Notes: generated by a model from the letters alone, not told the origin. 58,111 nt of DNA from a virus (IMGVR_UViG_3300025141_000107:1-58111), one strand, 5' to 3'. Shown: positions 4,913-31,568, numbered from the stretch's first letter. A program made the numbers and translations.

Positions 4913-5168
4913 TATCGTACGTCAAAATCATAGTCTTTTAGAGATAAGGAAGGGGACCGCACTTCAACGTCACTCTATGATTACAGGTGTTGTTGTTGAA
5001 ATACGTAATCAGTCTTCTCCAAAAGAGAACGAGACTGAATTTCTACGTGGGTGGATGGATCGTCTTGGACGGCTAGTAGATGTGCTGTGGGCAAACGGTC
5101 GGCTAAGTAAGAATTTTGCAGAGAATAGTCTCGATGTAGTTAGCACGAAAGAGGAATCACCGTCGTGA
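4899..5168 (+). CDS. MKVGDLV-family small protein
   Basis: MKVGDIV..GVVV..VLWANG. Confidence 0.8.
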   Translation: MKVGDIVRQNHSLLEIRKGTALQRHSMITGVVVEIRNQSSPKENETEFLRGWMDRLGRLVDVLWANGRLSKNFAENSLDVVSTKEESPS

Positions 5169-5172
5169 AGAT

Positions 5173-5376
5173 TTGAAAAATATAGGAAAGGTTATCTCAT
5201 GGAGATTGATTTCTATATTGATAACACTTGCAGTAACATTCTTCATGACAGGTGATTTGAAAGGTGCATCAGCTACAACTGCTGTTCTTCATACAGTTCT
5301 TATTTTTTCTCACTTGATGTTTGAAAATATCTGGGAAAATCTTTGTTCATCTAAAACAGGCCGTAAAGACACATAG
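5173..5376 (+). CDS. DUF2061-like small membrane protein
   Basis: KVISWR..TG..E-x-x-W pattern, two hydrophobic segments. Confidence 0.6.
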   Translation: MKNIGKVISWRLISILITLAVTFFMTGDLKGASATTAVLHTVLIFSHLMFENIWENLCSSKTGRKDT

Positions 5377-5647
5377 TTATACTTGTCCGGAAAAAGATGT
5401 GCGCAAAGAAGACATTGTTGAGCTAATTAGGGTTGACCTTCCTGACCATACCAATGGTGCATTTGATGTCAAGATAGAGTCAGATGATGGTGGCGCGCAT
5501 ATTTCAATCTTTCTCGAGGATCACACAAATTCTCAGGTTATAATGGGAAAATTTTCTAGAAGATTTAAAGATAGCAGGATCCTAATTATTAAAGTCCCGA
5601 AGGGATCGCTCGACTATCTTAGAACTTCTAGTCTAAAATCCAAGTAG
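5321..5647 (+). CDS. Hypothetical protein, start uncertain
   Basis: Fills a gap on the coding strand. Confidence 0.55.
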   Translation: MKISGKIFVHLKQAVKTHSYTCPEKDVRKEDIVELIRVDLPDHTNGAFDVKIESDDGGAHISIFLEDHTNSQVIMGKFSRRFKDSRILIIKVPKGSLDYLRTSSLKSK

Positions 5648-5673
5648 CGAAATAAATATCTCTATAGGCGAGG

Positions 5674-5844
5674 ATGAAAATGAGATATTTAATCTTTATA
5701 TTTTTCTTGATGGCATGTCCAAAGAAAAATGATGTCAAAACATACGAAAAAAAAGAGAAAGAGAGGGCACTTCAGGAGCTTTTAGAGGAAGAGGATTTTG
5801 ATGAGATACCAGAAGCTAATGAAGATATCAAAGAAGAGGATTAA
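5674..5844 (+). CDS. Small acidic putative lipoprotein (56 aa)
   Basis: MKMRYLIFIFFLMAC lipobox-like N-terminus. Confidence 0.55.
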   Translation: MKMRYLIFIFFLMACPKKNDVKTYEKKEKERALQELLEEEDFDEIPEANEDIKEED

Positions 5845-5915
5845 ATAGATTGTTAATACTGTTTTAATATTAGATAGAAGCAATATATTTATTATAGCAC
5901 ACACTGGATATTGAT

Positions 5916-6827
5916 ATGAAAATTTCAAAAAAAGCCCTTAGGAAAATTATTAGAGAACAGGCAGCGAGGCTCCTCGAGACACCCAATCCATCAGAGACAC
6001 CTTTGCCTAGTGTTCCACAGGATGTACTTGATGCAGGCATCAGTGTCGCCAGTGCCGTGGTCGCTCTTGATTTTATGTCGAAGATGGCACTAGCATCATC
6101 ACTCGCAGATGATCTTGATAAGATGCTTTCTTGCGCTATGACCGCAGCGAACCCATCTGAGGGAGATATAGCAAAGGGTCTTGAGTGCCTGATGCTTATT
6201 AGCAAGCACAAAGCTAAGCTGCAAGAAACTATCCCAGGTGAGAGTGAGAATATAGATAAGATTGAGACATGGATAATGACAATTCCTTCTCAGCTTCCTG
6301 CAATACCGATTCCTAACCCACTAGAGGAAAAAATGAAAATAACGCGCAACCAGCTCAGAAATTTACTCACTACAACTTTGAATGAGTCAACTAATAGATC
6401 ATATAAGATGACATATGAAAAGCCACCCATGCCTATGCAGAGTAGAGCTGATCCAGAATTTGCACAGCTAATTAAAAAGAGTAGAATAAAAGCTGAAGAC
6501 TCGATGAAGATCACTCGCAGTCAGTTGATGCAGATTATGCAAGAAGAACTTGGTAAGTCTGCACCATTCGGCAGTGGAATGAAGCAGGCCAAGCTTGACA
6601 AGGATCAGAAGAAGATCGTCGGCCACACATGACTGACTCATGTTAGGCGGAAGGGTTCCGCTTTAAAAGAGCTAGGTGTGGTCAAGAGACATTCATTAAA
6701 TGAATCAGGGGACGTAAAAAACTATGATGTATACTGGACTGAAAGTGGTGTGCTTGAGAAGGGAATACCGGTTCACATGCTCGAATCAGTTAAGCAACAG
6801 CATCATGCTCACGAAGCTACAGAATAG
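5916..6827 (+). CDS. Leader-bearing protein read through TGA 6630-6632; candidate selenoprotein
   Basis: Three MKI[ST]-type leaders (5916, 6333, 6504); after TGA the frame stays open 64 codons to TAG 6825-6827, ending 12 nt before the next gene; SECIS-like hairpin. Confidence 0.7.
6633..6675 (+). promoter_or_regulatory. Bacterial SECIS-like stem-loop
   Basis: TTAGGCGGAA-GGG-TTCCGCTTTAA upper stem with G-rich loop starting 20 nt after UGA; lower stem CTGACTC/GAGCTAG. Confidence 0.65.
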
Positions 6828-6839
6828 CTAGGAAAGTAG

Positions 6840-7304
6840 ATGAAAATCACCCGTAGACATCTTAGACGACTCATCAATGAAGAGATTACAATTTTATCTG
6901 AGCATGATGGTCACCACGGTGATCATGCATCTGTTGATCAGCGATTTCGCTGGTATCTTGATGTAACTAGCAGGATTGCTTCTAAAAGAGGATCAGCTAT
7001 AGAGGGTGAAATACAGGGCTTGAGAAGAGATGTAGCAGAGTTACTCGGTGATCTAGAGAGACATCTACCTGGCCACAGTCCTGCCTATGATCATCTTATG
7101 AACTTGGTTTTGCGCAATGATGACTTTCCTATACTCTCGTCCCTATTTGCAGATGAAATCAGCGTTCAGAATGATAACACTGATGTTGCAAATACAAGCT
7201 ACTCCGTTGATGATGTCGTATTTCACGATGTGGACTTGAGTGATATCGATGTCGAAGAGCTTGAAGGTAAAACAGGTGCTGCTCAAACTAGGGAAATCCC
7301 ATGA
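6840..7304 (+). CDS. MKITRRQLR-leader protein
   Basis: MKITRRHLRRLINEE..ILSE. Confidence 0.8.
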   Translation: MKITRRHLRRLINEEITILSEHDGHHGDHASVDQRFRWYLDVTSRIASKRGSAIEGEIQGLRRDVAELLGDLERHLPGHSPAYDHLMNLVLRNDDFPILSSLFADEISVQNDNTDVANTSYSVDDVVFHDVDLSDIDVEELEGKTGAAQTREIP

Positions 7305-7314
7305 GAGAAAACAA

Positions 7315-8082
7315 ATGAAAATAACGCGAAGACAAATTAATCTTCTTGTAAAAGAAGCAGTTGAAATTTTGAATGAAGAAGGGTATGACTGTATCAAAGA
7401 TTATATGCTAATGGGTTACTCTAGAGGCGAAGCACAGAAAATGTGTGGAGGATCATCCAGCAGAAGCAATTACAGCGGTGGACAAAGAAGGCGACGCTCG
7501 AGAGCGATGTCATACACAGGTCTCAATGATTCTACAATTTCTGACATTGAAACTATTATTAGAGATTCACGTGAGCAGCTTACAGACTGGGAAGATAATT
7601 TTCTTGCATCTGTTCTAAATCAACTTAAATATAAGAGGATAGGCTTGTCTCCCAAGCAAGATCCAATTATAAAGAGAATCTTATCTAAGTATAAGCAGGA
7701 TGATGATCCGGATACTAATGACGACGGTGTTCTTGATGCTGAAGAGATCAGCGCAATGGTTGATAAAATTGAGGACGATATAATCAATGAATCTGCTCAT
7801 GCTAAACCTGAGACTGCTGATCTGGCAAATGCAGCACTCGGTTTCATTCAAGAGTGGCAACAGGACGGAAAAGATGCCAGTGAAAAATCAAAGCGTGCTC
7901 TTGACACAGTAAAGGCTAGCTCTGAGTTTGAAAAGATGAGAACAGATGGAACTTCTGTCAAAGCCGATCGCTCCAGTCTATTTTTGAAAAAAGTACAAGA
8001 TCTCCAGAAAAGTGACAAAGAACTGTTTGATTATCTCAAGGATATCGGCAAGAAGATTACAATTCAAAGTGTCGGACTGTAG
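7315..8082 (+). CDS. MKITRRQLR-leader protein with DxNDDG motif
   Basis: MKITRRQINLLVKE..ILNE; DTNDDGVLD. Confidence 0.8.
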   Translation: MKITRRQINLLVKEAVEILNEEGYDCIKDYMLMGYSRGEAQKMCGGSSSRSNYSGGQRRRRSRAMSYTGLNDSTISDIETIIRDSREQLTDWEDNFLASVLNQLKYKRIGLSPKQDPIIKRILSKYKQDDDPDTNDDGVLDAEEISAMVDKIEDDIINESAHAKPETADLANAALGFIQEWQQDGKDASEKSKRALDTVKASSEFEKMRTDGTSVKADRSSLFLKKVQDLQKSDKELFDYLKDIGKKITIQSVGL

Positions 8083-8084
8083 AT

Positions 8085-8822
8085 GTGAAAATCTCAGATG
8101 CAAATATTAGAAGAATCATAAGAGAAGAGATTAGATATTCGCTGAATGAGATATCTGATGAAGAGGCAGAGAAAGTTCTTGGAAGAGAGCTTGAGACAAG
8201 CTTTTGCAGAGTTGGGGCATCAGACTTAAAGAGGTTGACTCTCGCTGATATTAAAAAATATGGTGGAAGAGTTCCGTCTTACTACTCAAGTAAAATAAAC
8301 ATTGCCACGACACCACCTATAAAAGCTGAAGATCTCGTGAGTATCACAAGTAATTTTGCAGGCCCTGGGAGACCTGGGCATAAAGGTATCGACTACGCTG
8401 CAAATGCGGGCACGCCTATCTACGCAGTTGCAGATGGTGTAGTTAGGAAAATATACACTAATCCTGACGCGGTGAACGGTTATGGAGTTGACATTGATCA
8501 CGGCCACGGCGCGGATTGTGTCAACCACAGCTCACAGTACATTCACATGTTCGAGTTGCCGTGGTCAGGTGAGAGAGACGAAAAGGGTAAAAGAATACCT
8601 GGGAAAAATTTAAGAGTAGGTCAAGAAATAAAAAAAGGAGACCACATAGGGAGGGTGGGAAATACAGGTGCAAGTAGGGGGGCACACCTTCACTTTCAGA
8701 TAATGCAAAATGGTGTTGCAGTCAACCCAATTCTATTCAGGGAGGATGATCCCTACGCCGCTGCCCGGGAAAGAGGGTGGAAGGGTGAAATGATAGAAGA
8801 CGAAGAGGAGCATGAAGAGTGA
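8085..8822 (+). CDS. M23-family metallopeptidase with leader
   Basis: HKGID, Y-x-H, VGNTG-x-S-x-G-x-HLHF, VNP. Confidence 0.9.
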   Translation: MKISDANIRRIIREEIRYSLNEISDEEAEKVLGRELETSFCRVGASDLKRLTLADIKKYGGRVPSYYSSKINIATTPPIKAEDLVSITSNFAGPGRPGHKGIDYAANAGTPIYAVADGVVRKIYTNPDAVNGYGVDIDHGHGADCVNHSSQYIHMFELPWSGERDEKGKRIPGKNLRVGQEIKKGDHIGRVGNTGASRGAHLHFQIMQNGVAVNPILFREDDPYAAARERGWKGEMIEDEEEHEE

Positions 8823-8917
8823 AGATCACACGTAAGCAATTAAGACAACTTATCAAAGAAGAGCAAGATAGATTACTATCAAGACATCGGTCTAAAGATC
8901 TCGAAGATTACTTATAA
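8819..8917 (+). CDS. Leader-only mini-ORF (32 aa)
   Basis: GTG KITRKQLRQLIKEEQDRLL...YL*; GAGGAG RBS. Confidence 0.55.
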   Translation: MKITRKQLRQLIKEEQDRLLSRHRSKDLEDYL

Positions 8918-8926
8918 ACCTACACT

Positions 8927-9295
8927 ATGGCACCTAAGAAACGAAGGCGCAGGAAGAAGAGAAAGCTGTGGAGCAAAAAGTCAGACTACACATGTCTCGA
9001 TGGCTCAATAGTTTCAATGGATAGCACTTGGGAAGTCGAATGTGCTAAGCGGCTGGATGAACTAGGAATTCGCTGGATAAGAAACCCAAGCCTCAAACTC
9101 AAGTACACCACGCGGGGCCGTAGAGCTCGGAACTATATCCCAGACTTCTACCTGCCTGATCATGATGTCTACATCGAGGTGAAGGGATACTGGACGGACG
9201 CAGCGAGACATAAGATGAAGGACGTCCAGGAGCGCAATCCAGTGAAAATAATCATCCTCGAAAGTCTCGAGGAGATTTGCAACTTTGTACTATAA
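8927..9295 (+). CDS. PD-(D/E)xK endonuclease (T7 endonuclease I/TnsA-N-like)
   Basis: DSTWE...YIPDFYL...IEVKG. Confidence 0.8.
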   Translation: MAPKKRRRRKKRKLWSKKSDYTCLDGSIVSMDSTWEVECAKRLDELGIRWIRNPSLKLKYTTRGRRARNYIPDFYLPDHDVYIEVKGYWTDAARHKMKDVQERNPVKIIILESLEEICNFVL

Positions 9296-9325
9296 AAACC
9301 GGAGACTAGAGAATATTTAGATAGT

Positions 9326-10528
9326 ATGCTTATATCTAAAAAGCGATTACTACAGATTATCAGAGAAGAGCTTATTCGTGAGGCAGATGAATTCACCCTA
9401 GGGTATGAGTCAAATGAGCCGACAGAGTCTGAGCATACTTCAAATGTTAGAAACATCGAGAGATGGTTTGAAGAGGTTCGCGAAGAGTTTATAGGATGTA
9501 CCAAGGAAGAGATAGGCAGGACCAGGGAGGAAGGCCTTTACGGCGAGCTATATGCAGACGGCGTAACCTTCAACGATTGGGTTCTTGGCGGTGAAGACTC
9601 GCTTGTTGCTCAGATGAATAGAAGGTGTCCGTCGCTAATGTTTGGAAACCTTGTTGTCAATGAAGATGGGAACGAACTCCTTGGTTTTTTGATGAAGGTG
9701 TTCCTGGCAAGAACAAATCTCATACTGATCACAGGTCCAAATGATCCAAATTGGGGCGAGGAGCAAGGTAGACAAATTGAGAATGATGCCTTCTTTAGAT
9801 CTCGCTTTGGTGTTAGGATGAAAGGCAGTGGTGATACCGAAAGACAGATAGAGAGACATCTCGAGGGAGATCACAATACCATATACATATACATGTACGG
9901 TGTCGATACAGAGAGAGCAAATAGCATAAGTGAATCATTTATCAAGGACACAATTCTGGCACATGAGTTTGGTCACGCTAGACAGAAGCTTACACAGGGA
10001 TTCGGGCAGGCACTTATCACATCACTCGGGTTGCATTCGGAGCTTGAAGACATTGATGCAGGCATTGTTGATGAGCTTATAGAACCCTGGCTGAAAGCAT
10101 CAATTGGAAAAGAGTTTGACTCAGACACTGAAGACATGCTTATGGATAAGTGGGAGAAGCTTGGAGGAAATCTAGGGGATGAGTCACAAACCGGCGCTGG
10201 TCAATACGCCCAGGCAGCGGGGTGGCTAGAGACACGAATGTACAGCGACAATGAGGTTCACAACATTCTAACAACAGACCTGAGAAGAGAGCTGATCAAG
10301 ACGTACGGTCCCCTCTACGGAAATGAACCCGACGAAGTGGCCGAATTTTATGAAGATGCGCTGCGAGACTTCTTGGGCTTAAGCATGCCTGAGATAGTCC
10401 AGGGCGGATTTGATAATCGAAACAGGATGCTAGGGTTTAGACTCCTGCTAAAAGACGATCAGAACATTGACACAATCTACGGCGAGCTGGCCAGCGCTAA
10501 GTCTGATCACGACCACGACCACACTTAA
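9326..10528 (+). CDS. Leader-bearing protein with HExxH zincin motif
   Basis: MLISKKRLLQIIREE; LAHEFGH. Confidence 0.75.
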   Translation: MLISKKRLLQIIREELIREADEFTLGYESNEPTESEHTSNVRNIERWFEEVREEFIGCTKEEIGRTREEGLYGELYADGVTFNDWVLGGEDSLVAQMNRRCPSLMFGNLVVNEDGNELLGFLMKVFLARTNLILITGPNDPNWGEEQGRQIENDAFFRSRFGVRMKGSGDTERQIERHLEGDHNTIYIYMYGVDTERANSISESFIKDTILAHEFGHARQKLTQGFGQALITSLGLHSELEDIDAGIVDELIEPWLKASIGKEFDSDTEDMLMDKWEKLGGNLGDESQTGAGQYAQAAGWLETRMYSDNEVHNILTTDLRRELIKTYGPLYGNEPDEVAEFYEDALRDFLGLSMPEIVQGGFDNRNRMLGFRLLLKDDQNIDTIYGELASAKSDHDHDHT

Positions 10529-10530
10529 GC

Positions 10531-10571
10531 GCGGTTAAACAATAAAAGATCTTAGCTGAAGAATAGTTATA
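10531..10571 (+). repeat. 41-bp intergenic repeat, copy 1
   Basis: GCGGTTAAACAATAAAAGATCTTAGCTGAAGAATAGTTATA. Confidence 0.85.
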
Positions 10572-10590
10572 AGTGACCAGAGAGGAACAC

Positions 10591-10950
10591 GTGAAAATAA
10601 CACGTAGACAGCTAAGAAGAATCATTAGTGAGGAAGCTACACATATGAAGGTGATGCATCAGTTAATGAAGATGATTCCCGGATTCAAGAACGTTCCGCG
10701 TGGTAGACCTTGGGCAGATCCTACTAACAGCCGATACATTCCCAATACCTTGGGATGGATCACACAGAAAGATGTTGATGATCTGGGTGGCGGGCAACCT
10801 AAGTCTATTCTGGAGATCACTTCAGATGCTGCAGGCCGCGAGATCACATACACTGTAGTTCGGTGGGGAGGCACGAGCGGTGACACGAAGGCTACATCCA
10901 AGACACACGTCGATTACGTAATTCACTTTGGTAATTCTGGTGCCAGTTAA
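10591..10950 (+). CDS. MKITRRQLR-leader protein
   Basis: GTG KITRRQLRRIISEE; GAGG RBS. Confidence 0.8.
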   Translation: MKITRRQLRRIISEEATHMKVMHQLMKMIPGFKNVPRGRPWADPTNSRYIPNTLGWITQKDVDDLGGGQPKSILEITSDAAGREITYTVVRWGGTSGDTKATSKTHVDYVIHFGNSGAS

Positions 10951-10983
10951 ACAATAAAAGATCAAAGTAAAAGAATAGTTATA
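10943..10983 (+). repeat. 41-bp intergenic repeat, copy 2
   Basis: CCAGTTAAACAATAAAAGATCAAAGTAAAAGAATAGTTATA; supplies the upstream stop. Confidence 0.85.
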
Positions 10984-11001
10984 TGGGTACGGAGATAAAC
11001 A

Positions 11002-11481
11002 ATGCGCATAAAGAGAAGATTGCTTGTAGAATTAATCAACGAAGAAATGATGAATGTAAGTGAGGCAAATTCAGGTGTTGATCCGAAGACAGGAAGATCG
11101 TGGTCTATAAGTCCGATGACAGGTGAGAAACACTGGGGAGGGATCGCAGACGAGGATGTTGAGGAACAAGAGAATGCTACTGCAGCAATCGACAATGCTA
11201 GAAACCAGAGAGATGACGGTTTATCATTTGAAGATTTTGCAAGGCTAGTCATTGATCAACTTAATCTATACGATGAGTGGCTGGGCAATACATCTGTTGA
11301 AGACGTAGTTGCTAATCTAGTGGGTGGCGGCACCGACTCTGACGATTGGGAACCAGACACCGGTTATGCCGTCTTGGATGCCGCTCGTGGGTATGAGCTC
11401 GATGAATCAGAAACCGATGAGGGAACACCCTTGACTGAGATGCCAGCATCGTGGCAACAGATATTAAGAAATGTGCTATAA
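11002..11481 (+). CDS. Acidic leader-bearing protein
   Basis: MRIKRRLLVELINEE. Confidence 0.8.
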   Translation: MRIKRRLLVELINEEMMNVSEANSGVDPKTGRSWSISPMTGEKHWGGIADEDVEEQENATAAIDNARNQRDDGLSFEDFARLVIDQLNLYDEWLGNTSVEDVVANLVGGGTDSDDWEPDTGYAVLDAARGYELDESETDEGTPLTEMPASWQQILRNVL

Positions 11482-11497
11482 AGATGTGGAATGAAAC

Positions 11498-12691
11498 ATG
11501 AGGATAACACACTCACAGCTTAGAGAGATCATAGGCAAAATCATTCTCGCAGAGTCACGATATTTTGGAATGTCAATTCAGGATGTCCTATCTTATCTTA
11601 AGGAATTTTCTGAACATACATGGGTATTTCTAGATCTTGAGACGACTGGGCTTAATAATCCCGCTGAGCTCAAAGAAGGACAGATAACTGAGATAGCTGC
11701 AATAGCTGTCAATCCTAATGACTGGTCAGGAGATTCTCAGATCGTCGGTGTGTTTAATAGAAAGATAGAACTAAATAAGAATACGAAATGGCGACATGAT
11801 AGAGCCGAAGAGAAAGCGAGACTTGTAGCAGATCAGATAAAAAACCTCGAGGATGAGATAGATGAGCTCGAGGAGCTTTGCTCCTCAGATTCTGCTGAAC
11901 TTGAGGAAGATGATGAGAGGTGCGCTGGTCTCGATGACCTGAAGCAACAGCTTCATGACATACTCGAGAAGAAGAAGAAGAACGCTAGGAACTGGTCAGT
12001 CCCGGATGCACTTGAGTATACAAACTACTACGGCATTCCAGATGAGTGGGATTCAGCTGCTGATGGTGTCCTCGAAATTGACGAACAGTGGGATGGAAAT
12101 TATATCGATGAGCAGGTAGCGATCAATGAATTTTTCACATTCGTCGCACAGTATGACAAGCCTGTTCTTGTAATACAAAATGCAGCATTTGATTCTGAGT
12201 GGCTGGGTGTTAGATTCAAGCAGAAGGCTGAGAGATATCCCACGATTGACACATTGAAGATCAGCCAGCTATTTCTCACACCCATGTTAAAGACACTTGC
12301 ATCAAGCGGAGATCAGGATGCGATCGACTTTCTCAGCTCTTCCGGCTCTGATGGCAGGAGTGGTCTAGCAAATATTTCAAAGGGTTTTGGGCTATCAGTG
12401 GACGGGCATCACACTGCTATAGTTGATGTCAAGATGACACTAACCATGCTCTCTCATGTCATCAGCAAGCTTAGAGAGAATCCGGACCTTAACATTGAAG
12501 TCGAGCACGGTGAAGCAGTATTTGGCAGACCTATTTATGATGATGAAGGAAATATTATTGGACGAAAAGGTGGTGCTATTGCATCTGCTGAGCGTGAAAA
12601 GAAGAAAAGAAAATGGTGGACGAAAAAACATCACACTAGAGCACAGCGTAAGAGACGACAAAAGAGAAGAGAATTAGGAGAAACAACGTGA
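11498..12691 (+). CDS. DEDDh 3'-5' exonuclease (DnaQ-like) with leader
   Basis: DLETTG (Exo I), QNAAFD (Exo II), HTAIVD (Exo III); coiled-coil insert; basic tail. Confidence 0.85.
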   Translation: MRITHSQLREIIGKIILAESRYFGMSIQDVLSYLKEFSEHTWVFLDLETTGLNNPAELKEGQITEIAAIAVNPNDWSGDSQIVGVFNRKIELNKNTKWRHDRAEEKARLVADQIKNLEDEIDELEELCSSDSAELEEDDERCAGLDDLKQQLHDILEKKKKNARNWSVPDALEYTNYYGIPDEWDSAADGVLEIDEQWDGNYIDEQVAINEFFTFVAQYDKPVLVIQNAAFDSEWLGVRFKQKAERYPTIDTLKISQLFLTPMLKTLASSGDQDAIDFLSSSGSDGRSGLANISKGFGLSVDGHHTAIVDVKMTLTMLSHVISKLRENPDLNIEVEHGEAVFGRPIYDDEGNIIGRKGGAIASAEREKKKRKWWTKKHHTRAQRKRRQKRRELGETT

Positions 12692-14031
12692 AAATCACAC
12701 GCAAACAACTAGGAAGAATTATCAAGGAAGAGCTCACAAGACTTTCAGAGAGTGATCCTTGGGGTGGACCATCTTATGATGAGCAATGGCAAGATGAAGC
12801 AGCTGGGCTTCATGGAGCCGAGCCAAGTGCGAACATCTTACCTGGGTCGAGTATCGAGAGTGGAGAAGGGTGTGTTGATGGAGACCAAGATGGGATCTGC
12901 GACTTTGCTGATAGCGACCTTGACGATGACGGTATTGTTGATTCAGCTCAGGTACCTTTAGATATTGTCGACGGTGACACAGGTGAGATCTATGCACAGT
13001 GGGATGATCCAGACAACTGGAATGACGAGCCCTTTAGCGGAATGGAAGCAGATTTTGAAATCTGGCTAGGTAAGAATCCACGCTATACAAGACATCCAGA
13101 CACACAAAAACTCTCTCAGGAGAATGCCATCAATGCATGGTGGGTTACAGACGCCGCAGAACAGGCCGCCTGGGACAAGCGTGCAAATCAAACTCTCGTC
13201 GGGAAATACAATCTACCCTCAGGCGGGTGGGGAATACCTGAGCCTGACCGCGGAACGACTAGTGAAGGTACATCTATGAATGAAGGGGTGATGGTATCAC
13301 TCCAGCCTATAACACAGATCAACAGAGCAGAGGAGTCTCATGAATCAAGGTGGATGAGACTTGCAGGCATCACCGAAGAGATGGGAAGACTTGTAGAGGA
13401 TGACGGAGACTCAAATCCTGCAGAGGAGAGGTATGTCACTGTAAGTGCTCAAACTCCTGAAGGTCCAATAGAAATAGAGCTGTGGGATAAAATATCAGGT
13501 GTTGAGACAGGCTTTGCGATAGTTGTAAATCCTTATTACATTGATTTGGGAGAAGTGGGTCATGATCCCGACTGGAAGCGAAAAGATGGGAGAACTGTGG
13601 TGGGAGTTCCACAAGATCACCCTAATGCAGTACCGGTAGGAGATGCATATTTTGAGCTCTACCAGGAGTGGAATGAGGATGGTTACACGACTCCCATTGA
13701 TGATGTCATGGGGTGGACACCTCGCGACAGAGAGTGGTGGAGCGAGACATCAGGCGACGGTGGAGACTATGCACGGCAAGCTTCAGAGTTCGACCCAGAA
13801 GAATATGTGAGATCTGCATCCGGAATGTGGATTTTAAAACCACAGGGAGACGACGATTTAGGTGAGGATCTCCCACCGCACACGGGAATGGGACGAAGAC
13901 CCTCTGGTAGGCATGGAAGAGGTCAGCTTAGTGAAAGCGCAGACACGTGGATGAGAATTGCAGGTATTTCCCAAGAGACGGGAATGCTTACCGAAAAGGA
14001 AGTCCTCAATGAAAAAAGTGAGAATAGATAA
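12688..14031 (+). CDS. Acidic leader-bearing protein
   Basis: MKITRKQLGRIIKEE; DxDxDG motifs; two WMRxAGI motifs. Confidence 0.8.
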   Translation: MKITRKQLGRIIKEELTRLSESDPWGGPSYDEQWQDEAAGLHGAEPSANILPGSSIESGEGCVDGDQDGICDFADSDLDDDGIVDSAQVPLDIVDGDTGEIYAQWDDPDNWNDEPFSGMEADFEIWLGKNPRYTRHPDTQKLSQENAINAWWVTDAAEQAAWDKRANQTLVGKYNLPSGGWGIPEPDRGTTSEGTSMNEGVMVSLQPITQINRAEESHESRWMRLAGITEEMGRLVEDDGDSNPAEERYVTVSAQTPEGPIEIELWDKISGVETGFAIVVNPYYIDLGEVGHDPDWKRKDGRTVVGVPQDHPNAVPVGDAYFELYQEWNEDGYTTPIDDVMGWTPRDREWWSETSGDGGDYARQASEFDPEEYVRSASGMWILKPQGDDDLGEDLPPHTGMGRRPSGRHGRGQLSESADTWMRIAGISQETGMLTEKEVLNEKSENR

Positions 14032-14065
14032 GCTTTGGAGTCAAAGCTCCTATATGAACATGAGT

Positions 14066-14106
14066 GCGGTTAACCAATAAAAGATCAGAGTGGCTGAATA
14101 GTTATA
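14066..14106 (+). repeat. 41-bp intergenic repeat, copy 3
   Basis: GCGGTTAACCAATAAAAGATCAGAGTGGCTGAATAGTTATA. Confidence 0.9.
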
Positions 14107-14136
14107 TAAGAATCGCAGAGGGAGAGAGATAGAATC

Positions 14137-14421
14137 ATGCGCGTTACCCGTAATCAACTAAGAAGAATCATTCAGGAAACTATCGACGCAGATGTGGATG
14201 GCAACGGAATACCCGACGATCAGGAAGACACCATGGATCCAGACGACAAGGTCTCTATGATTCTTAATAAAGTTAGAGATCTTCTAGGCGAAGCATACGA
14301 GATTGCCAATAGTGCACCAGATCACCAGGACAAGGGTGAGGGCTACGCAATGGACCAGGTCCAGTCAGTGGTTAACAATCTCCACCAAGATTACGGCACA
14401 GAGTATTGGAATCGCGGTTAA
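14137..14421 (+). CDS. Leader-bearing small protein
   Basis: MRVTRNQLRRIIQE; DVDGNGIPD. Confidence 0.8.
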   Translation: MRVTRNQLRRIIQETIDADVDGNGIPDDQEDTMDPDDKVSMILNKVRDLLGEAYEIANSAPDHQDKGEGYAMDQVQSVVNNLHQDYGTEYWNRG

Positions 14422-14454
14422 CCAATATAAGATCAGAGTAGATGAATACTTATA
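14414..14454 (+). repeat. 41-bp intergenic repeat, copy 4
   Basis: GCGGTTAACCAATATAAGATCAGAGTAGATGAATACTTATA; supplies the upstream stop. Confidence 0.9.
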
Positions 14455-14460
14455 TAGGTC

Positions 14461-15093
14461 ATGCGGATAACTAGAAAACGACTAAGACAGATTATCAAGG
14501 AGGAGCTTCTTCTCGAAGGAGGAATGATTTGGCTTCCTGTTCATCCTGCTGCACTTGTTTATCACTATTACACACCGCAAATGCTTCAAAAAATTATAGG
14601 AGCGTATATTTCTCTTGCAAAAGATGCAGCAATGCATATCGAAAAAAACCCGCTTGGTAAAGCACTGCTAAAAAGAGCTGGAATAAAACAAGGCTCACTG
14701 TTTAGTTCACTTAAATCAGGGCAAAAAAACGCATATGGAATTTATTTAATTGCGTATGCATCGGGGGTGATTGGGTGGAATATAGGTGAAGTCCTTTTGG
14801 ATGCATACCCTCATGATTTGGGAGCTTCGGCAAGCGGAAAGCAAATTCAAGTTGATGTTGATAATATCGATTTTGATGACTTAAAAGAAAATCTTATTCC
14901 ATACGCAATAGAAATTGCATCAACTTTAATTCCCAAAATGGCTGCGGCTCCAGGTGAAATGCTCACGCATGGAGGCGACGCATTTAGAAGAGCAACAACG
15001 TCTACTGCTTCGGGAAAATTAATTGATCCTGACCCGAGAGGCATTGACTGGCCTTATGCATGGGAACAACTCAAGAGTGCGGTTAACCAATAA
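14461..15093 (+). CDS. Leader-bearing protein
   Basis: MRITRKRLRQIIKEELLLE. Confidence 0.8.
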   Translation: MRITRKRLRQIIKEELLLEGGMIWLPVHPAALVYHYYTPQMLQKIIGAYISLAKDAAMHIEKNPLGKALLKRAGIKQGSLFSSLKSGQKNAYGIYLIAYASGVIGWNIGEVLLDAYPHDLGASASGKQIQVDVDNIDFDDLKENLIPYAIEIASTLIPKMAAAPGEMLTHGGDAFRRATTSTASGKLIDPDPRGIDWPYAWEQLKSAVNQ

Positions 15094-15119
15094 AAGAACA
15101 GAGTAGATGAATAGTTATA
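15079..15119 (+). repeat. 41-bp intergenic repeat, copy 5
   Basis: GCGGTTAACCAATAAAAGAACAGAGTAGATGAATAGTTATA; supplies the upstream stop. Confidence 0.9.
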
Positions 15120-15140
15120 AGGGCACGGAGAGATAGAATC

Positions 15141-15545
15141 ATGCGCATAACTCGTAATCAACTTAGACAGATAATTCAGGAAGAACTGAGCAGAGGACGT
15201 CAGCTCACTAGAGAATCCTTTTTCTATAGCGGAAGCAATACAGGCCAGCTAGCAGACTATCACGTTCAATCAGGTGATAGACTAAATGACATCGTTACAA
15301 ACTTTGTAAGAAAACAGTTTACTATAGACGATGTTCTGGAAGACAACCCAGATATAACAGATCCTAATGTAATATTTGCAGGTGACGTTATTAAGATTCC
15401 TATTGACAGTGCTCCCTACCAGACAGTCGGAGATCAGCTAATGACAGTCGATCATCCAGCAGTGACACGATTCCGTCGTTACCCATCTCCAGGATCAGAG
15501 GGCGACGGGATAATCTTTCAATTCTACGGGGATGGAGAACAGTAA
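15141..15545 (+). CDS. LysM-domain protein with leader
   Basis: YHVQSGDRLNDI...NPDITDPNVIFAGDVIKIP. Confidence 0.85.
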   Translation: MRITRNQLRQIIQEELSRGRQLTRESFFYSGSNTGQLADYHVQSGDRLNDIVTNFVRKQFTIDDVLEDNPDITDPNVIFAGDVIKIPIDSAPYQTVGDQLMTVDHPAVTRFRRYPSPGSEGDGIIFQFYGDGEQ

Positions 15546-15587
15546 ATCAATCACACGGGCGAGCACACCGCGACTAGGGTCTCAAGC

Positions 15588-15628
15588 GCGGTTAAACAAT
15601 AAAAGATCAGAGTGGCTGAATAGTTATA
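15588..15628 (+). repeat. 41-bp intergenic repeat, copy 6
   Basis: GCGGTTAAACAATAAAAGATCAGAGTGGCTGAATAGTTATA. Confidence 0.9.
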
Positions 15629-15658
15629 TAAGAACATGCATAGAGGAGAACAGGAATC

Positions 15659-16075
15659 ATGCGCGTAACCCGTAGACAACTAAGACAGCTTATTCAGGAA
15701 GCAGTTCTTAAAGAACAGGATACTTCTCAAGCTTTCGAAATCATCACTCAGCTGGCTAGTGGATTGGTAGATGAGCTTAAGGGTTGGACGACAGACGAAG
15801 AAAGAGTTTTAGAATATCTCAAGGAGATATGGGAGCTGCATCATCTCGTGAAACAGCACGGTCCTGGGTCTTATCACGCAATGGCGAAAATGCAAGGCCC
15901 CTGGGATCGAGTGAAGGAAGTTGCAGATAAACTTTTGGGTGAGGAGGGTGGCTTAGTGAAGCTGATCAAGTCTGAGACCATTGATGATCTTGAAGCCAAA
16001 GTAGTGAAGCACGCCGTCTCCGATGAGATCTCCTTGCTGTTGAATCAACTTGAGAGTGCTGGACGACCCTGGTAA
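15659..16075 (+). CDS. Leader-bearing protein
   Basis: MRVTRRQLRQLIQEAVLKE. Confidence 0.8.
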   Translation: MRVTRRQLRQLIQEAVLKEQDTSQAFEIITQLASGLVDELKGWTTDEERVLEYLKEIWELHHLVKQHGPGSYHAMAKMQGPWDRVKEVADKLLGEEGGLVKLIKSETIDDLEAKVVKHAVSDEISLLLNQLESAGRPW

Positions 16076-16140
16076 ATCGAGCGCCCGGGCGAGCACCCGC
16101 GTACGTATGCATCGGGCTCTGGGCACTATCTTTTTTTACT

Positions 16141-16185
16141 GAGCACAGCACTCTCTACCTCTGAGGCTGTGCTCCTTCTCTTTTT
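16141..16185 (+). terminator. Putative terminator closing block B
   Basis: GAGCACAGC...GCTGTGCTC stem followed by a pyrimidine/T tract. Confidence 0.45.
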
Positions 16186-16335
16186 CCGGGACACGTGGCA
16201 CAAGGACTACTAAAGGCTGCTCGCATGTTGCGGTGGCATCGAGCACTCACATATACGGAAATTCCGTGCTATGATCGAGCAGTAGGATCGAGCGCCCGCG
16301 CACGTACGTCGAGGACTTAGGGGGAGCTCACACAA

Positions 16336-16429
16336 TGACAAATTGTCACAACATTACACACTTTTTGACACGTTGTCACTCATTTTGACACAACGTCACG
16401 AGCTTTAGCTCTCCGTCGACACTTTGTCA
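16336..16429. repeat. Four palindromic TGACA-N3-TGTCA boxes
   Basis: Copies at 16336, 16366, 16386 and 16417 (last two with one mismatch); spacing 30/20/31 bp. Confidence 0.8.
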
Positions 16430-16543
16430 CCACCTTTATTATTCTACACCCCCATCGAGGAGTGTACAAGCGAAAAAAAGTTTTAAAAACGTGTACACTA
16501 CACTCCCATGTGGTAAGATAAATTATCTACAAGCGGAGACGGG

Positions 16544-16840
16544 TTGTCAAGGTCAAAAATTAATCGAGGACGAGCGAGAAGAGAAGAGTTGCGAGAGAGT
16601 GCGGAGTCGAGGGCAAAGCTCCGGCTCGAGCGGACAAATTCTCAACAGATCGAGCACCTCGACAAGATGCTTGGAAAAGATATTGGTGCGAAGAAAGAAC
16701 GGGAGAGACTGGAGAGATTGATTGAGGTCGAGCTGAGCAAGAAAAATGTGAAGCGAAAAACCTCTGGGTCGGCACGAGACAGGGACAAGAGAAAGAACAT
16801 GAAGAAGAGCAAGAGCAGCTCCGGTGAGGTCGATGCTTAA
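16544..16840 (+). CDS. Basic hypothetical protein
   Basis: First gene after promoter 16490; GGAG RBS; R/K-rich. Confidence 0.65.
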   Translation: MSRSKINRGRARREELRESAESRAKLRLERTNSQQIEHLDKMLGKDIGAKKERERLERLIEVELSKKNVKRKTSGSARDRDKRKNMKKSKSSSGEVDA

Positions 16841-16948
16841 AATCGTCCCGGAGATACTTAAGGGGATCTGGCTCGTGTCGACCCTCATTCTTACAACGAC
16901 CGCGATGTGGTTGACGTTTGCCACCTTCGCAACGTAGAGGGTACATAG

Positions 16949-17485
16949 GTGTGCAGTGAGATCGATGAAATTGAATCTTACATGCGTGAGAAAATAAATG
17001 AGCTTGGCAACGCTGGGTACGGTCCTCGATCGGAGTTCAAGTGCTGGAGGAGAAACCAGTCGATCGGGTTCCTAATCTATGCCAGGAGAGAGTTCAAGAC
17101 TGGGCCGTTCGGCGTCATCAATGTCGAGGACTATCGAGTCCACGTCGCTTGTCACTCAGGGGAGGACGGTCCTCATCGAGCTGTGGACGACATTGTTAAC
17201 TTTCTTTTCAACAGCGTCGAGATGCCCAAGGCACCTAAGGATGATCGAGCTCTGTTCAAGGAGTGGCTACTCGCTGATATCATCGAGAAGGGCATCGAAC
17301 TCAATCGGGAGCGACGCTCCTGGAAGAATGATCGAAGGCACATCCTCATGACGATGTACTTCGACAATATGAATGTCGCGAGGTGGTGTGAACCCATGCT
17401 CAAGGATTGGAATTTTGTGTGGTCTAATGATGGCAAGTCACTGTCGAGAGACTGGCGATGGCGTGGGCCGGACGCTGGCGTGTAA
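16949..17485 (+). CDS. Hypothetical protein
   Basis: GAGGGG RBS; stop lies in the next promoter's GTGTAA. Confidence 0.75.
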   Translation: MCSEIDEIESYMREKINELGNAGYGPRSEFKCWRRNQSIGFLIYARREFKTGPFGVINVEDYRVHVACHSGEDGPHRAVDDIVNFLFNSVEMPKAPKDDRALFKEWLLADIIEKGIELNRERRSWKNDRRHILMTMYFDNMNVARWCEPMLKDWNFVWSNDGKSLSRDWRWRGPDAGV

Positions 17486-17549
17486 ATTGATTTTAGTTAA
17501 TGTATTATTTATATAGGCCGCTTTGGCCAGCAACATGAGGTAGTAAGCA

Positions 17550-17744
17550 ATGGAATTCATTCCACTAATTCAAACATGCACCTGTGCAATGTGTGGCGAG
17601 GAGGGGTCCTGTACAAAGCATCCCGACAGCAAGATGCCGGTCTGTCGAGCGTGTGATCCAGTCAGCTGGGAGCAAGCGGCAGCAGATGAGAAGAACATGT
17701 ACATGTCTGGTATCAATCTTGAGAAGCTCGACGCAGCTAAGTGA
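17550..17744 (+). CDS. Small Cys-rich zinc-finger-like protein
   Basis: CAMC...CRAC; GAGGT RBS. Confidence 0.7.
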   Translation: MEFIPLIQTCTCAMCGEEGSCTKHPDSKMPVCRACDPVSWEQAAADEKNMYMSGINLEKLDAAK

Positions 17745-17747
17745 CTA

Positions 17748-18032
17748 ATGCACAATGTCACCTTCCGATATCTGATCGGCAAGAGTTCGATGTTTGATTC
17801 GGTGGAGGATCTGATCAAGCACTATCAGTCGAAGGGTGAGGAGTATGATGAGTCGATCTTTGAAAGTTTCTCCATTGAGGTGCCTGTTGATCGAGCTCAC
17901 GGCGAGATAATGTTGGTCGGGCACGGGTGTGCTTTCATCAAAGGGTGGTCGGTTCGTGATTCAATTAGCACAATATTCATAGACCGCAGTGAGAAACCAA
18001 TTTGGGATTATTCTCATCATTCACAACGCTAG
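17748..18032 (+). CDS. Hypothetical protein
   Basis: Operonic position; weak resemblance to 25525-25833. Confidence 0.65.
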   Translation: MHNVTFRYLIGKSSMFDSVEDLIKHYQSKGEEYDESIFESFSIEVPVDRAHGEIMLVGHGCAFIKGWSVRDSISTIFIDRSEKPIWDYSHHSQR

Positions 18033-18089
18033 GCGTGTACCTTGCGTAATACTAGGTTATAATATACTTACAGACACATGGAGAAACCA

Positions 18090-18437
18090 ATGATTCACTT
18101 TAGCGGAAATCTTAAACACGACGGCGGTCGCATCGATCTCGAGGTCTATCTCGACGGAGATCAGACTGTTCTTCGATTCGGTAATAGCTTCACGCTACGC
18201 CTGGAGGAGGATCAGCTCACAAGGCTGTGTGACGTGATCATGGATGCGCTAAACGCGCAAAGATCCCAGCGACGTAACGCCGCTAAGGTTGTGCTCGATG
18301 AGGCAGGCGAGATCTCGATGAGTGATCTTCAGGCTGCTGAGGATGTCTTTGTGCAGCTAGGAATCGACGCCCGAGAGAAGCTCAAGGCCAAGCGGAAGTC
18401 AGAACTGTGGGACCCAGATGATCCGGCGAATTGGTGA
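18090..18437 (+). CDS. Hypothetical protein
   Basis: Promoter 18034 plus GGAG RBS. Confidence 0.75.
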   Translation: MIHFSGNLKHDGGRIDLEVYLDGDQTVLRFGNSFTLRLEEDQLTRLCDVIMDALNAQRSQRRNAAKVVLDEAGEISMSDLQAAEDVFVQLGIDAREKLKAKRKSELWDPDDPANW

Positions 18438-18441
18438 TAAG

Positions 18442-18690
18442 ATGGGTGAGCTAGTTGACTTCGCGGCATGGAAGAAGCGCAGGGAGGATGAGGAGCATGA
18501 GAAGGAGATGGAGGAGATCCGTGCTCTGCAGGCAGAGGTCTCATCATACTTGGATGATATGGATGACCTGAGCACAGGTCCGTTTGTCCTGGACGAGGAC
18601 AGGGAGGAGTTCGCTCACAGAGCTTTGCAGATTATGCTATCGGCTCTCGACGGATATTCCCATTGGCCCAATGACTCGACGGATCTTTAA
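18442..18690 (+). CDS. Hypothetical protein
   Basis: MGELVDFAAWKKRR N-terminus. Confidence 0.7.
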   Translation: MGELVDFAAWKKRREDEEHEKEMEEIRALQAEVSSYLDDMDDLSTGPFVLDEDREEFAHRALQIMLSALDGYSHWPNDSTDL

Positions 18691-18691
18691 T

Positions 18692-18768
18692 GCCGCCTTA
18701 GCTCAGTTGGCCAGAGCAGCTGTCTTGTAAACAGCAGGTCGTCGGTTCAAATCCGACAGGTGGCTCCA
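18692..18768 (+). tRNA. tRNA-Thr(UGU)
   Basis: GCCGCCT/AGGTGGC acceptor, GCTGT-CTTGTAA-ACAGC anticodon arm, TTCAAAT T-loop, encoded CCA. Confidence 0.95.
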
Positions 18769-18782
18769 CACAGGAGAAAGAA

Positions 18783-18983
18783 ATGAGAGATAATATAACG
18801 CTGGAACACCAGATCGATGGTCTGACAGGTCAGTGTAGAAAATTGGTTGAAAGGAATGAGGAGCTGGAGCAGCGACTGGGATATGTTGAGACAGTTCTCG
18901 TTAAGCTGATCGTCGCTCTTAGGGAGGGTGGCATCATTGTTCCATCAGAGACTGTGCCTGGCGCACCTGAATACGAGTTCTAA
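18783..18983 (+). CDS. Small coiled-coil protein
   Basis: AGGAG RBS. Confidence 0.7.
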   Translation: MRDNITLEHQIDGLTGQCRKLVERNEELEQRLGYVETVLVKLIVALREGGIIVPSETVPGAPEYEF

Positions 18984-19043
18984 GCACTATTCGACGCGTG
19001 CAACTTTGTGCAGTTTAAGTTAAAATAATAGCAGGAGGAAACA

Positions 19044-19322
19044 ATGCCAGTTTCACAACACCCCGGACTATCTGTTAACACACTATCTCTCGATGAGCTA
19101 CGTACACTCAACTCAGCTGTTGTTCAGCGAATCAAGTGGCTCCGCTCAGAGGAAGATAAGCGGATGAAGCGAACGCTATTCATCGGCAGCCAGGTCTCGT
19201 TCAGAGACAATGACGGCCGGATGGCTGAAGGTAAGGTCACAAAGATCATGCGGAAGTTCGCAAAGGTCGACGTCGGAGATTGCATCTGGCGTGTACCTCT
19301 TAATCACCTGACAAAGGTGTAA
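19044..19322 (+). CDS. Small protein with SH3/KOW-like C-terminus
   Basis: Promoter plus AGGAGG; IGSQVSF...GKVTKI...WRVP. Confidence 0.75.
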   Translation: MPVSQHPGLSVNTLSLDELRTLNSAVVQRIKWLRSEEDKRMKRTLFIGSQVSFRDNDGRMAEGKVTKIMRKFAKVDVGDCIWRVPLNHLTKV

Positions 19323-19332
19323 GCACGCTAAC

Positions 19333-19408
19333 GGGTCAATAGCTCAATTGGTAGAGCACCGGCCTTTTAAGCCGTAGGTTCTGGGATCGTGCCCCAGTTG
19401 ACCCACCA
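19333..19408 (+). tRNA. tRNA-Lys(UUU) with atypical T-loop
   Basis: GGGTCAA/TTGACCC acceptor, CTTTTAA loop, T-loop ATCGTGC, CCA. Confidence 0.9.
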
Positions 19409-19467
19409 TTTACGTGTAGCTTTATTGCTAGAGTGGTATAATAATAATGTACCAACCAAGGAAAATC

Positions 19468-19734
19468 ATGCCAACTGCTCCATCTATTGTTCCCGACACT
19501 CAACGGCCCGAAACTGGGTTGGGTGAGTTTATCTACGGACCCTTCGCTGTCCTTGACGACAGCTCCACCTATTCAGGTGCTGAGGGTGCTGCAATCTACT
19601 TTCTGACCCCCAAGGGGATGGAACAACTCGAGAACAGCAATGACATGAAGAGTGTTGACGGAGACGAGGTTGGGCATCTCACGATCAGTGACCTGCTCGA
19701 CGCTTATAACAAGGTTCACGGAACGGACCTCTAG
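19468..19734 (+). CDS. Hypothetical early protein
   Basis: Promoter 19413 plus AAGGA RBS. Confidence 0.7.
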   Translation: MPTAPSIVPDTQRPETGLGEFIYGPFAVLDDSSTYSGAEGAAIYFLTPKGMEQLENSNDMKSVDGDEVGHLTISDLLDAYNKVHGTDL

Positions 19735-19742
19735 GAGATAAT

Positions 19743-19979
19743 ATGCCCCTTCAAGATAACATCGAGATTGAGAACATCCTCGACGAGGCTACAGACTGCT
19801 TTGAGGATAAGCTGAAGCAATTGTTCGACGAGCTCGATGACACCAGCAAGATCAATGTGAGCACCAATCAGATGAACTGGTGTACACAGGTATCCGCAGC
19901 GGGTGATGAGCTCAGAAAGGAATTGAACCACACCATCGAGTGGTTCGAGGTTAAATTCTTGCGCGGTGAGTTTAAATAG
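19743..19979 (+). CDS. Hypothetical early protein
   Basis: AGGAG RBS. Confidence 0.7.
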   Translation: MPLQDNIEIENILDEATDCFEDKLKQLFDELDDTSKINVSTNQMNWCTQVSAAGDELRKELNHTIEWFEVKFLRGEFK

Positions 19980-19980
19980 G

Positions 19981-20178
19981 ATGGATGACACGGTGCTTAA
20001 CATGACCAAGGAAGAGATGTGGACTGTGATCAGTGCGCTGACTGTGTACTCGAATGAGCACAGGCGTGAGGTCGAGGAATCACTCTTTCCGGAGACGCAA
20101 CGTCATTCACGTCAGGAGTGGCTTAAAGCTGTTGATCTCCTGAATCGTCTTGATCCTGTTAATTTCCCGCGCGTGTAA
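19981..20178 (+). CDS. Hypothetical early protein, start uncertain
   Basis: Stop lies in promoter GTGTAA. Confidence 0.6.
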   Translation: MDDTVLNMTKEEMWTVISALTVYSNEHRREVEESLFPETQRHSRQEWLKAVDLLNRLDPVNFPRV

Positions 20179-21300: not shown

Positions 21301-21472
21301 CCTGGTAAAAGTAAAGACAAGGTTCTACGGCACAAAGACAGGATTCCTGATTGAAAAGGTGAATGATGTATGGGGTGACGGATGGATGATCTCGCCAACA
21401 GATCACCCTCGTCAGATAATCGCAGACCCGCGGGATATAGAGATTGTATCCTCGCGTGTAACTTTAAAGTGA
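21287..21472 (+). CDS. MKVGDLV-family small protein
   Basis: GTG KVGDLVKVK; 14-nt overlap. Confidence 0.8.
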   Translation: MKVGDLVKVKTRFYGTKTGFLIEKVNDVWGDGWMISPTDHPRQIIADPRDIEIVSSRVTLK

Positions 21473-31402: not shown

Positions 31403-31568
31403 TGTATTCCCCTATATTTTAGGTATATCACTAGGAAAAATTATATAAAGTGTAACCAGACATAACGTAGACAATCTGTACTAGCAAAACTTTCACAAAA
31501 TTCCAAAAGAAATTTTCCGAATCTTTTGTATAGTTATAGAGGTAACTCATCGCAAAGGGTAATATAAG

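Follow-up and report, generated by a model that had tools for sequence, protein, structure and literature searches.

A 41-bp repeat at the head of exchangeable leader-gene cassettes in an uncultured marine phage: a probable promoter that doubles as a homology patch

We analyzed a stretch of viral DNA of 58,111 bp (IMGVR_UViG_3300025141_000107), here called the window, which is a whole IMG/VR virus record. Because CheckV estimated the record at 18% of its genome, it represents a fragment of a very large phage. Nearly all of its genes lie on the + strand, and for most of them a family match is absent. The subject of this study is a 41-bp repeat, the 41-mer, of which six copies were found within 5.1 kb, all of them on the + strand. 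They confirm the six positions given in a preliminary description of this DNA (10531, 10943, 14066, 14414, 15079 and 15588), and their 41 columns could be aligned gap-free. Each copy is followed by a gene that opens with a common N-terminal leader; the remainder of such a gene is called its cargo, and repeat, spacer and first leader codons together are called the cassette head. The repeats and the genes that they precede are as follows:

10531..10571, + strand: repeat copy 1, five differences from the consensus, starts 3 nt after the stop codon of gene 9326-10528
10591..10950, + strand: leader-tagged cargo gene, 119 aa, GTG start, family match absent
10943..10983, + strand: repeat copy 2, five differences from the consensus, stop codon of the upstream gene at repeat position 6
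11002..11481, + strand: leader-tagged cargo gene, 159 aa, no family above the cut-off
14066..14106, + strand: repeat copy 3, 30-nt spacer, same head type on other cargo in contigs L090 and L096
14137..14421, + strand: leader-tagged cargo gene, 94 aa
14414..14454, + strand: repeat copy 4, core variant ATACTTATA, 6 nt to the ATG, upstream stop codon at position 6
14461..15093, + strand: leader-tagged cargo gene, 210 aa
15079..15119, + strand: repeat copy 5, upstream stop codon at position 13
15141..15545, + strand: leader-tagged cargo gene with a LysM domain, 134 aa
15588..15628, + strand: repeat copy 6, precedes the last cassette of the array
15659..16075, + strand: last cassette gene, 138 aa, its stop codon is the exact point at which homology with four other contigs resumes

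The 5' edge of the repeat is sharp at GCGG, and the 3' edge lies at TTATA. When up to three mismatches were allowed, the consensus matched four copies, compared to 0.00 expected from 100 shuffles; copies 1 and 2 differ from it at five positions each by hand count. A looser 23-nt pattern, applied to all 58,111 bp, yielded 6 forward matches, 0 reverse matches and 0 control matches. Metagenome contigs were scanned with one pattern spanning both halves of the repeat, and the 41-mer was found in eight contigs besides that of the window, bringing the total to 23 copies with the window included. In all six window copies a start codon follows after 6-30 nt (19, 18, 30, 6, 21 and 30 nt, in copy order) and opens the leader M(K/R)(I/V)TRxQLRxIIxEE, as had been reported. 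The earlier description is also correct in that three copies (10943, 14414 and 15079) contain the upstream gene's stop codon and that copy 1 starts 3 nt after a stop codon.

The leader, MKITRRQLRRIIxEE, occurs 20 times in the window. Seventeen of the 20 copies open an open reading frame (ORF) of their own, and the three at 6333, 6504 and 7315 are internal to longer frames; ORF 5916-6632 opens with its own leader and encloses two of these three. The leader copies that have no repeat sit in tight, operon-like runs. The repeat-free leader genes and one additional, probable copy of the repeat are located as follows:

5916..10528, + strand: upstream leader array without the 41-mer, mostly tightly packed, leaders at 5916, 6333, 6504, 6840, 7315, 8085, 8819 and 9326
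~9279..9321 (approximate), + strand: probable degenerate seventh repeat copy with the ATAAAA box, CGGAG and GAATATTTAGA, overlaps the stop codon of a nuclease gene and lies before leader gene 9326
11498..14031, + strand: two leader genes without the repeat, each with a start close to or overlapping the end of the preceding gene

The upstream array encodes an M23 peptidase (8085) and an HExxH-containing protein (9326). The two genes at 11498-12691 and 12688-14031 encode a DEDD-type exonuclease and a 447-aa protein, respectively. Apart from the M23, LysM, DEDD exonuclease and HExxH proteins, the leader cargo has no match, and its members have no similarity to one another. A degenerate leader search retrieved 52 IMG/VR loci with 314 leader starts, with up to 16 in a single 8.9-kb locus. 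Two to four leader motifs in series were seen within single ORFs (5916-6632 and the proteins P0002, P0003 and P0004), which are possibly polyproteins cut to small peptides by a prohead protease.

The conserved block exceeds the 41 bp. On the 5' side it has a weak ATCTCGAGC-like extension, and on the 3' side it includes the spacer and the leader codons. The complete head of ~115-130 bp thus begins with a weak junction motif, which is followed by the 41-mer, a spacer that harbors a ribosome site, and leader codons over ~45 nt. The heads fall into types with spacers of 6, 18-19, 21, 27-28 or 30 nt. Genes after a 41-mer mostly start with ATGCGC (MR...), whereas leader genes without it mostly start with ATGAAA (MK...); therefore, the lineage of the head at the DNA level extends into the first codons. 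Several other contigs have long repeats of their own (at least 70 nt) before leader genes, namely L056 (6676), L059 (6581, 7847), L048 (457, 1032) and L067 (5536), which have only an ATA(T/C)TTATA core in common with the window. The use of long repeated heads seems to be widespread in the leader-bearing phage group.

The 3' core of the 41-mer is ATAGTTATA. As previously described, a shorter motif is found before other genes, and it corresponds to this core: it stands alone at 31530..31538 (+ strand), 30 nt before the leader-like gene 31569-32186, and near variants precede the genes at 36115 and 37863. In 273 unique upstream regions of leader genes from the 52 IMG/VR loci, AGTTATA, ATAGTTA and AATAGTT rank first, third and fifth by ratio among the enriched 7-mers, with a 6-7-fold enrichment. 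Of 73 unique sites of the pattern ATA[GTC][TG]TATA, 33 are followed by a leader-type start at a distance of 3-47 nt (mostly 18-32 nt). The nearest IMG/VR relative, G006 (83 kb, with patches of 67-94% identity), has five exact ATAGTTATA sites. All of them share the coding strand with the leader-type genes that they precede, and two of the five directly follow terminator-like hairpins with T runs.

The preliminary description stated that the 5' 30 bp of the repeat need an explanation of their own, which could be given for a part of them. In the window copies, the sequence ATAAAA starts 21 nt before the core. Among 64 unique sites outside the window, 7 (from five contigs) have this sequence with its start 20-22 nt ahead of the core, compared to an expectation of ~0.15 (0.05 per position at three positions). 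Because of this fixed distance, a part of the 5' 30 bp can be assigned to a second promoter-like box. In addition, the consensus of the 41-mer has stop codons in all three frames. The upstream ORF ends inside the 41-mer in 9 of the 23 copies (at positions 6, 13, 26 and 40, representing all three frames), and in 5 further copies it ends 4 nt before it.

Taken as a unit, core and ATAAAA box most likely constitute a phage-specific promoter that is not of the sigma-70 type; they could form one bipartite site or two adjacent sites. The class of this predicted promoter is probably middle or late. A sigma-70 promoter was rejected: 28 sigma-70-type matches were found in the region 5000-20000, none of which was on one of the six repeats. 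Other window genes carry TGGTATAAT-like extended -10 motifs 10-25 nt before their starts (18078, 19447, 21502, 25217, 28616 and 36824). These are probably early promoters of the host type, and next to them the 41-mer clearly looks like an element of another class. A comparison with T4 late promoters was discarded, as words of the type NATAAA[AT][AG] are too common in AT-rich DNA to be informative, and late genes usable for calibrating a late motif were not found in G006 or the window.

The repeat could also act at the level of RNA and not as a promoter: within a long polycistronic transcript it could be a site of processing, terminate transcription or serve as a translational operator. The tight, operon-like packing of leader genes elsewhere in the array would agree with this, and the element would be situated in a 5' untranslated region if it were transcribed from upstream. 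However, folding of the six window copies with their flanks revealed no stable structure (z-scores of -0.06 to -1.10), a shared upstream hairpin was absent from 22 copies (50 nt of upstream sequence plus 14 nt of the element, z-scores of -1.8 to +1.6), and no Rfam family matched the element. RNA structure and a known RNA family were rejected on these grounds. Furthermore, the start codon follows at a variable distance (6-30 nt). A function in RNA is therefore regarded as very improbable.

The arrays were compared between contigs to locate the limits of homology. With blastn, homology to the window array was restricted to blocks of ~40-160 nt covering the repeat, the spacer and the first 8-17 codons. 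The exceptions were a nuclease gene, the flanks and one cargo gene. Among cargo pairs compared by blastp, only 9 matched at 1e-5. Each window head was compared with its three closest heads. For five of the six, these (0.71-0.89 identity over the head, mostly from other contigs) all precede unrelated cargo with similarity at noise level. For the sixth (15588), one of the three, located in L090, carries homologous cargo.

The contig L096, whose sample has the same numeric prefix as the window's own contig, has flanks that are syntenic with the window at 2049-4898 (70-89% identity) and at 16072-16588 (74%). Nine leader genes are located between these flanks, all of them preceded by a copy of the element, and a single cargo (L096_11154) is similar to window cargo, namely to the LysM gene with 37% over 65 residues. 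L099 has a single cassette between the nuclease gene and the right flank, and in L101 one cassette precedes the right flank. The number of cassettes between conserved flanks is thus 1, 9 or at least 10 in different contigs, and their cargo is unrelated. In five contigs, the stop codon of the last gene in the array is the precise point at which the right-hand homology begins. The preliminary description had made its interpretation depend on cassette polymorphism at the repeats and had suggested breakpoint mapping: such polymorphism, bounded by the heads, is present, the arrays enclosed by conserved flanks vary in how many and which cassettes they contain, and the limits of homology fall at the heads and at the last-cassette stop codon. 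The possibility that the cargo has diverged beyond recognition and was not replaced was rejected, because the flanks are 70-90% identical while the cargo differs in length (72-271 aa) and lacks similarity.

The leader itself may be a signal for packaging into phage heads. In T4, the prohead protease recognizes the motif L/I-x-E. Hand counting revealed an E at leader position 14 in 16 of the 20 window copies, mostly as I-x-E. Five large leader-bearing records were available (237-293 kb, one of them complete with terminal repeats), and all five encode a T4-type prohead protease (PF03420) and gp23 (PF07068). In L071-L075 (G001-G005), the ORFs that follow the protease at a distance of two or three genes, which we take to be the position of scaffold gene 22 in the T4 gene order, start with MAK(I/V)S(R/K)xxLKxL(V/I)KECL; the sequence in L071 is MNNKTRKAMKSIVKECL. 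These starts resemble the cargo leader, and the N-termini of gp23 (MSKKFTLNQLTEGIRQR) show a fainter likeness. The internal proteins of T4 are described as having in common only a capsid targeting sequence, which takes them into the scaffolding core (PMC3012670), and which is reported to be removed by gp21 through cutting C-terminal to glutamic acid (PMC5694885). By analogy, the leader is most likely a capsid-targeting-like tag for packaging and cleavage.

Together, these observations make it likely that the 41-mer is a phage-specific promoter that doubles as a homology patch for recombination within the cassette head. The core ATAGTTATA and the ATAAAA box 21 nt upstream would drive transcription of each leader gene. 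As the AT-rich element has stop codons in all three frames, any upstream gene would be terminated before the next leader begins. A crossover within two heads would then delete, insert or swap the cargo between them. A role of the heads as homology patches is proposed because they are numerous, nearly identical and in one orientation in a row, and because they recur in related phages that share samples. Homologous recombination between heads of 115-130 bp would suffice for this, so that a dedicated enzyme would not be needed. Of the promoter-plus-recombination cassette that had been proposed earlier, the cassette aspect has held up, as the same head stands before unrelated cargo here and in eight contigs. 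A dedicated recombination site was not found, nor was a recombinase among the 82 window ORFs scanned, and the new capture of the cargo genes, also proposed there, is conjectural. The head marks swappable genes, probably virion-loaded by analogy with T4, in a giant marine phage lineage.

Several observations weigh against this explanation. Of the 20 leader copies in the window, just 6 and perhaps a seventh have the repeat, and hence a leader gene can do without it. Conservation extends to all 41 positions of the 23 copies, while the flanks are only 70-90% identical. This exceeds the need of a two-box promoter, and part of the element may therefore have a further function. Four leader genes of contig L062 are preceded, at 8-10 nt, only by the box with the bases that follow it (CTATAAAAGAACAGAG), which favors two separate sites over one bipartite site. 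Promoter activity is deduced from position, orientation and conservation, and recombination from the comparison of contigs, in which no recombinant junction was caught. With respect to packaging, gp23 and gp21 were absent from the window and from the five nearest fragments (0/5), two large window proteins had no match in the five T4-type records, and the T4-type nature of the window phage is itself presumed.

The absence of a directly observed junction would suit a plain promoter, of which the phage transcription machinery reads the whole 41-mer, and next to which cargo differences arise by illegitimate recombination or homing and not by way of the heads. The conserved positions of core and box in distant relatives are in agreement with it, and the conservation of the whole 41-mer across contigs is what strong functional constraint predicts. 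However, in several independent contigs the left-hand limits of homology fall at the heads and those on the right, for the last cassette, at its stop codon, the same head types, as defined by their spacers (6, 18, 27-28 or 30 nt), are found on unrelated cargo in different contigs, and 45 nt of leader codons have retained DNA-level identity along with the promoter. A plain promoter as the sole function is therefore considered unlikely.

The exception to head-only homology that was noted above, the nuclease gene, and the conserved right flank bear on the question whether the repeat is a dedicated recombination site. Their positions are:

8927..9295, + strand: leaderless small PD-(D/E)xK nuclease, 122 aa, basic N-terminus, inside the array
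16076..16200, + strand: conserved flank, begins at the last-cassette stop codon, contains the ATCGAGC motif and a terminator-like inverted repeat GAGCACAGC/GCTGTGCTC with a T run behind it

The nuclease resembles T7 endonuclease I (PDB 3cae, 1m0d) and the nuclease domain of Bax1. It recurs within the leader arrays of at least 8 other contigs with 65-97% protein identity. One could envisage that the 5' part of the head (ATCTCGAGC-GCGGTTAAMC) is targeted by a specific nuclease or recombinase, for example by this T7-endonuclease-I-like enzyme of the array, and that cutting drives the exchange of cassettes in a manner somewhat similar to integrons or homing. Consistent with this, leaderless copies of the nuclease are located inside the arrays of the window, L096, L099, G006 and L033, in most cases directly before a head, and the L096 copy (97% aa and 91% nt identity to that of the window) is better conserved than the flanks. 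Also, GGTTAACC is palindromic, and ATCGAGC, which is found 18 times in the window compared to 7.9 expected, recurs in the flank after the last cassette, with four occurrences within 16076-16293. However, the palindrome is not maintained, as 14 of the 23 copies read GGTTAAAC (hand count), and it was rejected as a symmetric binding site. An attC-type hairpin is absent, and the nuclease also occurs in leader arrays without the 41-mer (L021, L022, L038 and L065). The recombinase partner for which a search had been recommended was not found either: none of the 82 window ORFs scanned matched an integrase or recombinase family. A dedicated site, and with it cutting as the driving force of cassette exchange, is thus very unlikely.

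In a broader version, the heads, an ATC(TC)GAGCGC junction at the 3' end of each cassette, and the nuclease would together form an active system by which genes for effectors delivered with the virion are captured and exchanged. In a co-infected cell, the nuclease would cut the junctions or their vicinity, whole cassettes would be swapped when the cut is repaired from the co-infecting relative, and the giant marine phage population would draw on a common pool of injectable proteins. We regard this as a rather improbable extension of the promoter and homology-patch explanation.

The region behind the last cassette was found to be unusual in a further respect. About 470 nt at 16076-16540 are non-coding and conserved in five contigs. 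They contain two terminator-like hairpins, a run of TGACA/TGTCAC half-palindromes and an TGGTAAGAT extended -10-like site, and may represent a regulated early control region.

Among described systems, the PeSL cassette resembles the window array most closely, combined with the theme of the internal-protein loci of T-even phages. PeSLs (promoter-early stem-loops) and their PmSL variant were described by Arbiol et al. 2010 (PMC2839356) and Comeau et al. 2014 (PMC4122927). According to these accounts, they are conserved blocks of a promoter and a stem-loop in hyperplastic regions of T4-type phages, and they recombine mutually to delete, insert or replace the intervening ORFs and can release mini-circles (PMC2839356, PMC4122927). 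Homologous recombination between the repeats is the mechanism proposed for the T4 PeSLs (PMC2839356), and their promoter is described as a sigma-70-like early promoter with a -35 box, ~17 nt and a -10 box (PMC4122927). As in our array, many nearly identical short regulatory blocks in one orientation lie between small, non-essential genes of a variable region, the flanked genes differ between related phages, and a role as portable promoter and homology patch has been proposed. Two of these likenesses were tested: multiple intergenic copies in the direction of transcription were found (six in the window and nine in L096), and breakpoints of insertion, deletion or replacement fall at the element. 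In contrast to PeSLs, the 41-mer runs on into a conserved coding leader, so that the homology patch lies partly inside the gene, and the lineage of the window phage is uncultured and putatively of the T4 type. Furthermore, the 41-mer has neither the sigma-70-like -35/N17/-10 arrangement nor an adjacent stem-loop, and because both are lacking it was not classed as a member of the PeSL family.

The internal-protein loci of T-even phages, with their capsid targeting sequence (PMC3012670), have in common with our arrays that unrelated small proteins share only a short N-terminal leader, which ends before a Glu cleavage site (a predicted one in our case), and that the gene set differs between related phages. 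In addition, the cargo enzymes are plausible for injection, and here they include the M23 peptidase, the LysM protein, the exonuclease and the HExxH protein. The two differ in scale and in sequence. The internal proteins of T4 are only a handful, whereas the 58 kb here contain 20 leader copies, and a single 8.9-kb locus of a relative can have as many as 16. In sequence, the leader has no relationship to that of T4, and some ORFs of our arrays carry several leaders in a row. Integrons, too, are arrays of repeat-bounded single-gene cassettes in one orientation, the content of which varies between relatives. However, integron cassettes are served by one common promoter, whereas each cassette has its own promoter-like element here. 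The repeat lies at the 5' end and is fused to the coding sequence, and neither an integrase (82 window ORFs scanned) nor an attC hairpin accompanies it.

Together with their DNA, phages deliver proteins into the host cell, and some of those of T4 disarm host defenses. In the uncultured marine lineage analyzed here, dozens of unrelated genes have been fitted with one head, which would provide a promoter, a ribosome site and an address tag, the promoter and tag roles being putative. If this is true, the head allows a large phage to keep a fast-changing arsenal both expressible and packageable, irrespective of the cargo or the upstream frame. The 41-mer plus leader can also serve as a search handle, as a single DNA pattern led to arrays in eight further metagenome contigs. 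With this pattern, the complete set of cargo genes of the lineage could be catalogued, and the head could become a ready-made loading tag once a cultured relative exists.

The range of the database searches was as follows. Exact and degenerate searches for the repeat in IMG/VR yielded no match or only 12 chance matches without the 3' half, and a blastn search of named phages with the region yielded no match. Locus searches with single proteins (9326-10528 and 46016-48319) revealed no relatives, and a word-index protein search with the leader region revealed only 3. A literature search with four leader strings returned no paper containing them. Among the 18 public runs listed, there was no RNA run that contains the region. 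Logan contigs from four marine runs were placed on window 5000-18500, and these contigs break at the repeats. Their joints lie within leader codons, with sides of 22-46 letters (one of 80) and 88% likeness; such joints often originate from other organisms, and no conclusion was drawn from them. In one Logan contig (runs X2 and X3), the copy at 15588 carries letters typical of other copies and may be a strain variant.

Three features of the window outside the leader arrays were also recorded. First, 15 small ORFs of 54-90 aa (window 107-5168 and 21287-21472) start with MK(V/I)GD(L/M/I)V and often end with ...EVIxExR. Neighbors overlap by 14 nt, and in several cases the C-terminal codons GAGGTGATC form the ribosome site of the next gene. 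These ORFs represent a second tandem paralogue family, and a PHROG match was found for 0 of the 5 members scanned. Second, the window contains three tRNA genes, tRNA-Thr(tgt) at 18692-18768, tRNA-Lys(ttt) at 19333-19408 and tRNA-Arg(tct) at 29904-29979. Third, genes for DUF444 (YeaH-like), SpoVR and PrkA are consecutive at 52834-57289, and this block is syntenic with G006 at 67-74% nt identity. Homologues of PrkA are found in Thermus phages, in one Ralstonia jumbo phage and in uncultured phages of 480-640 kb.

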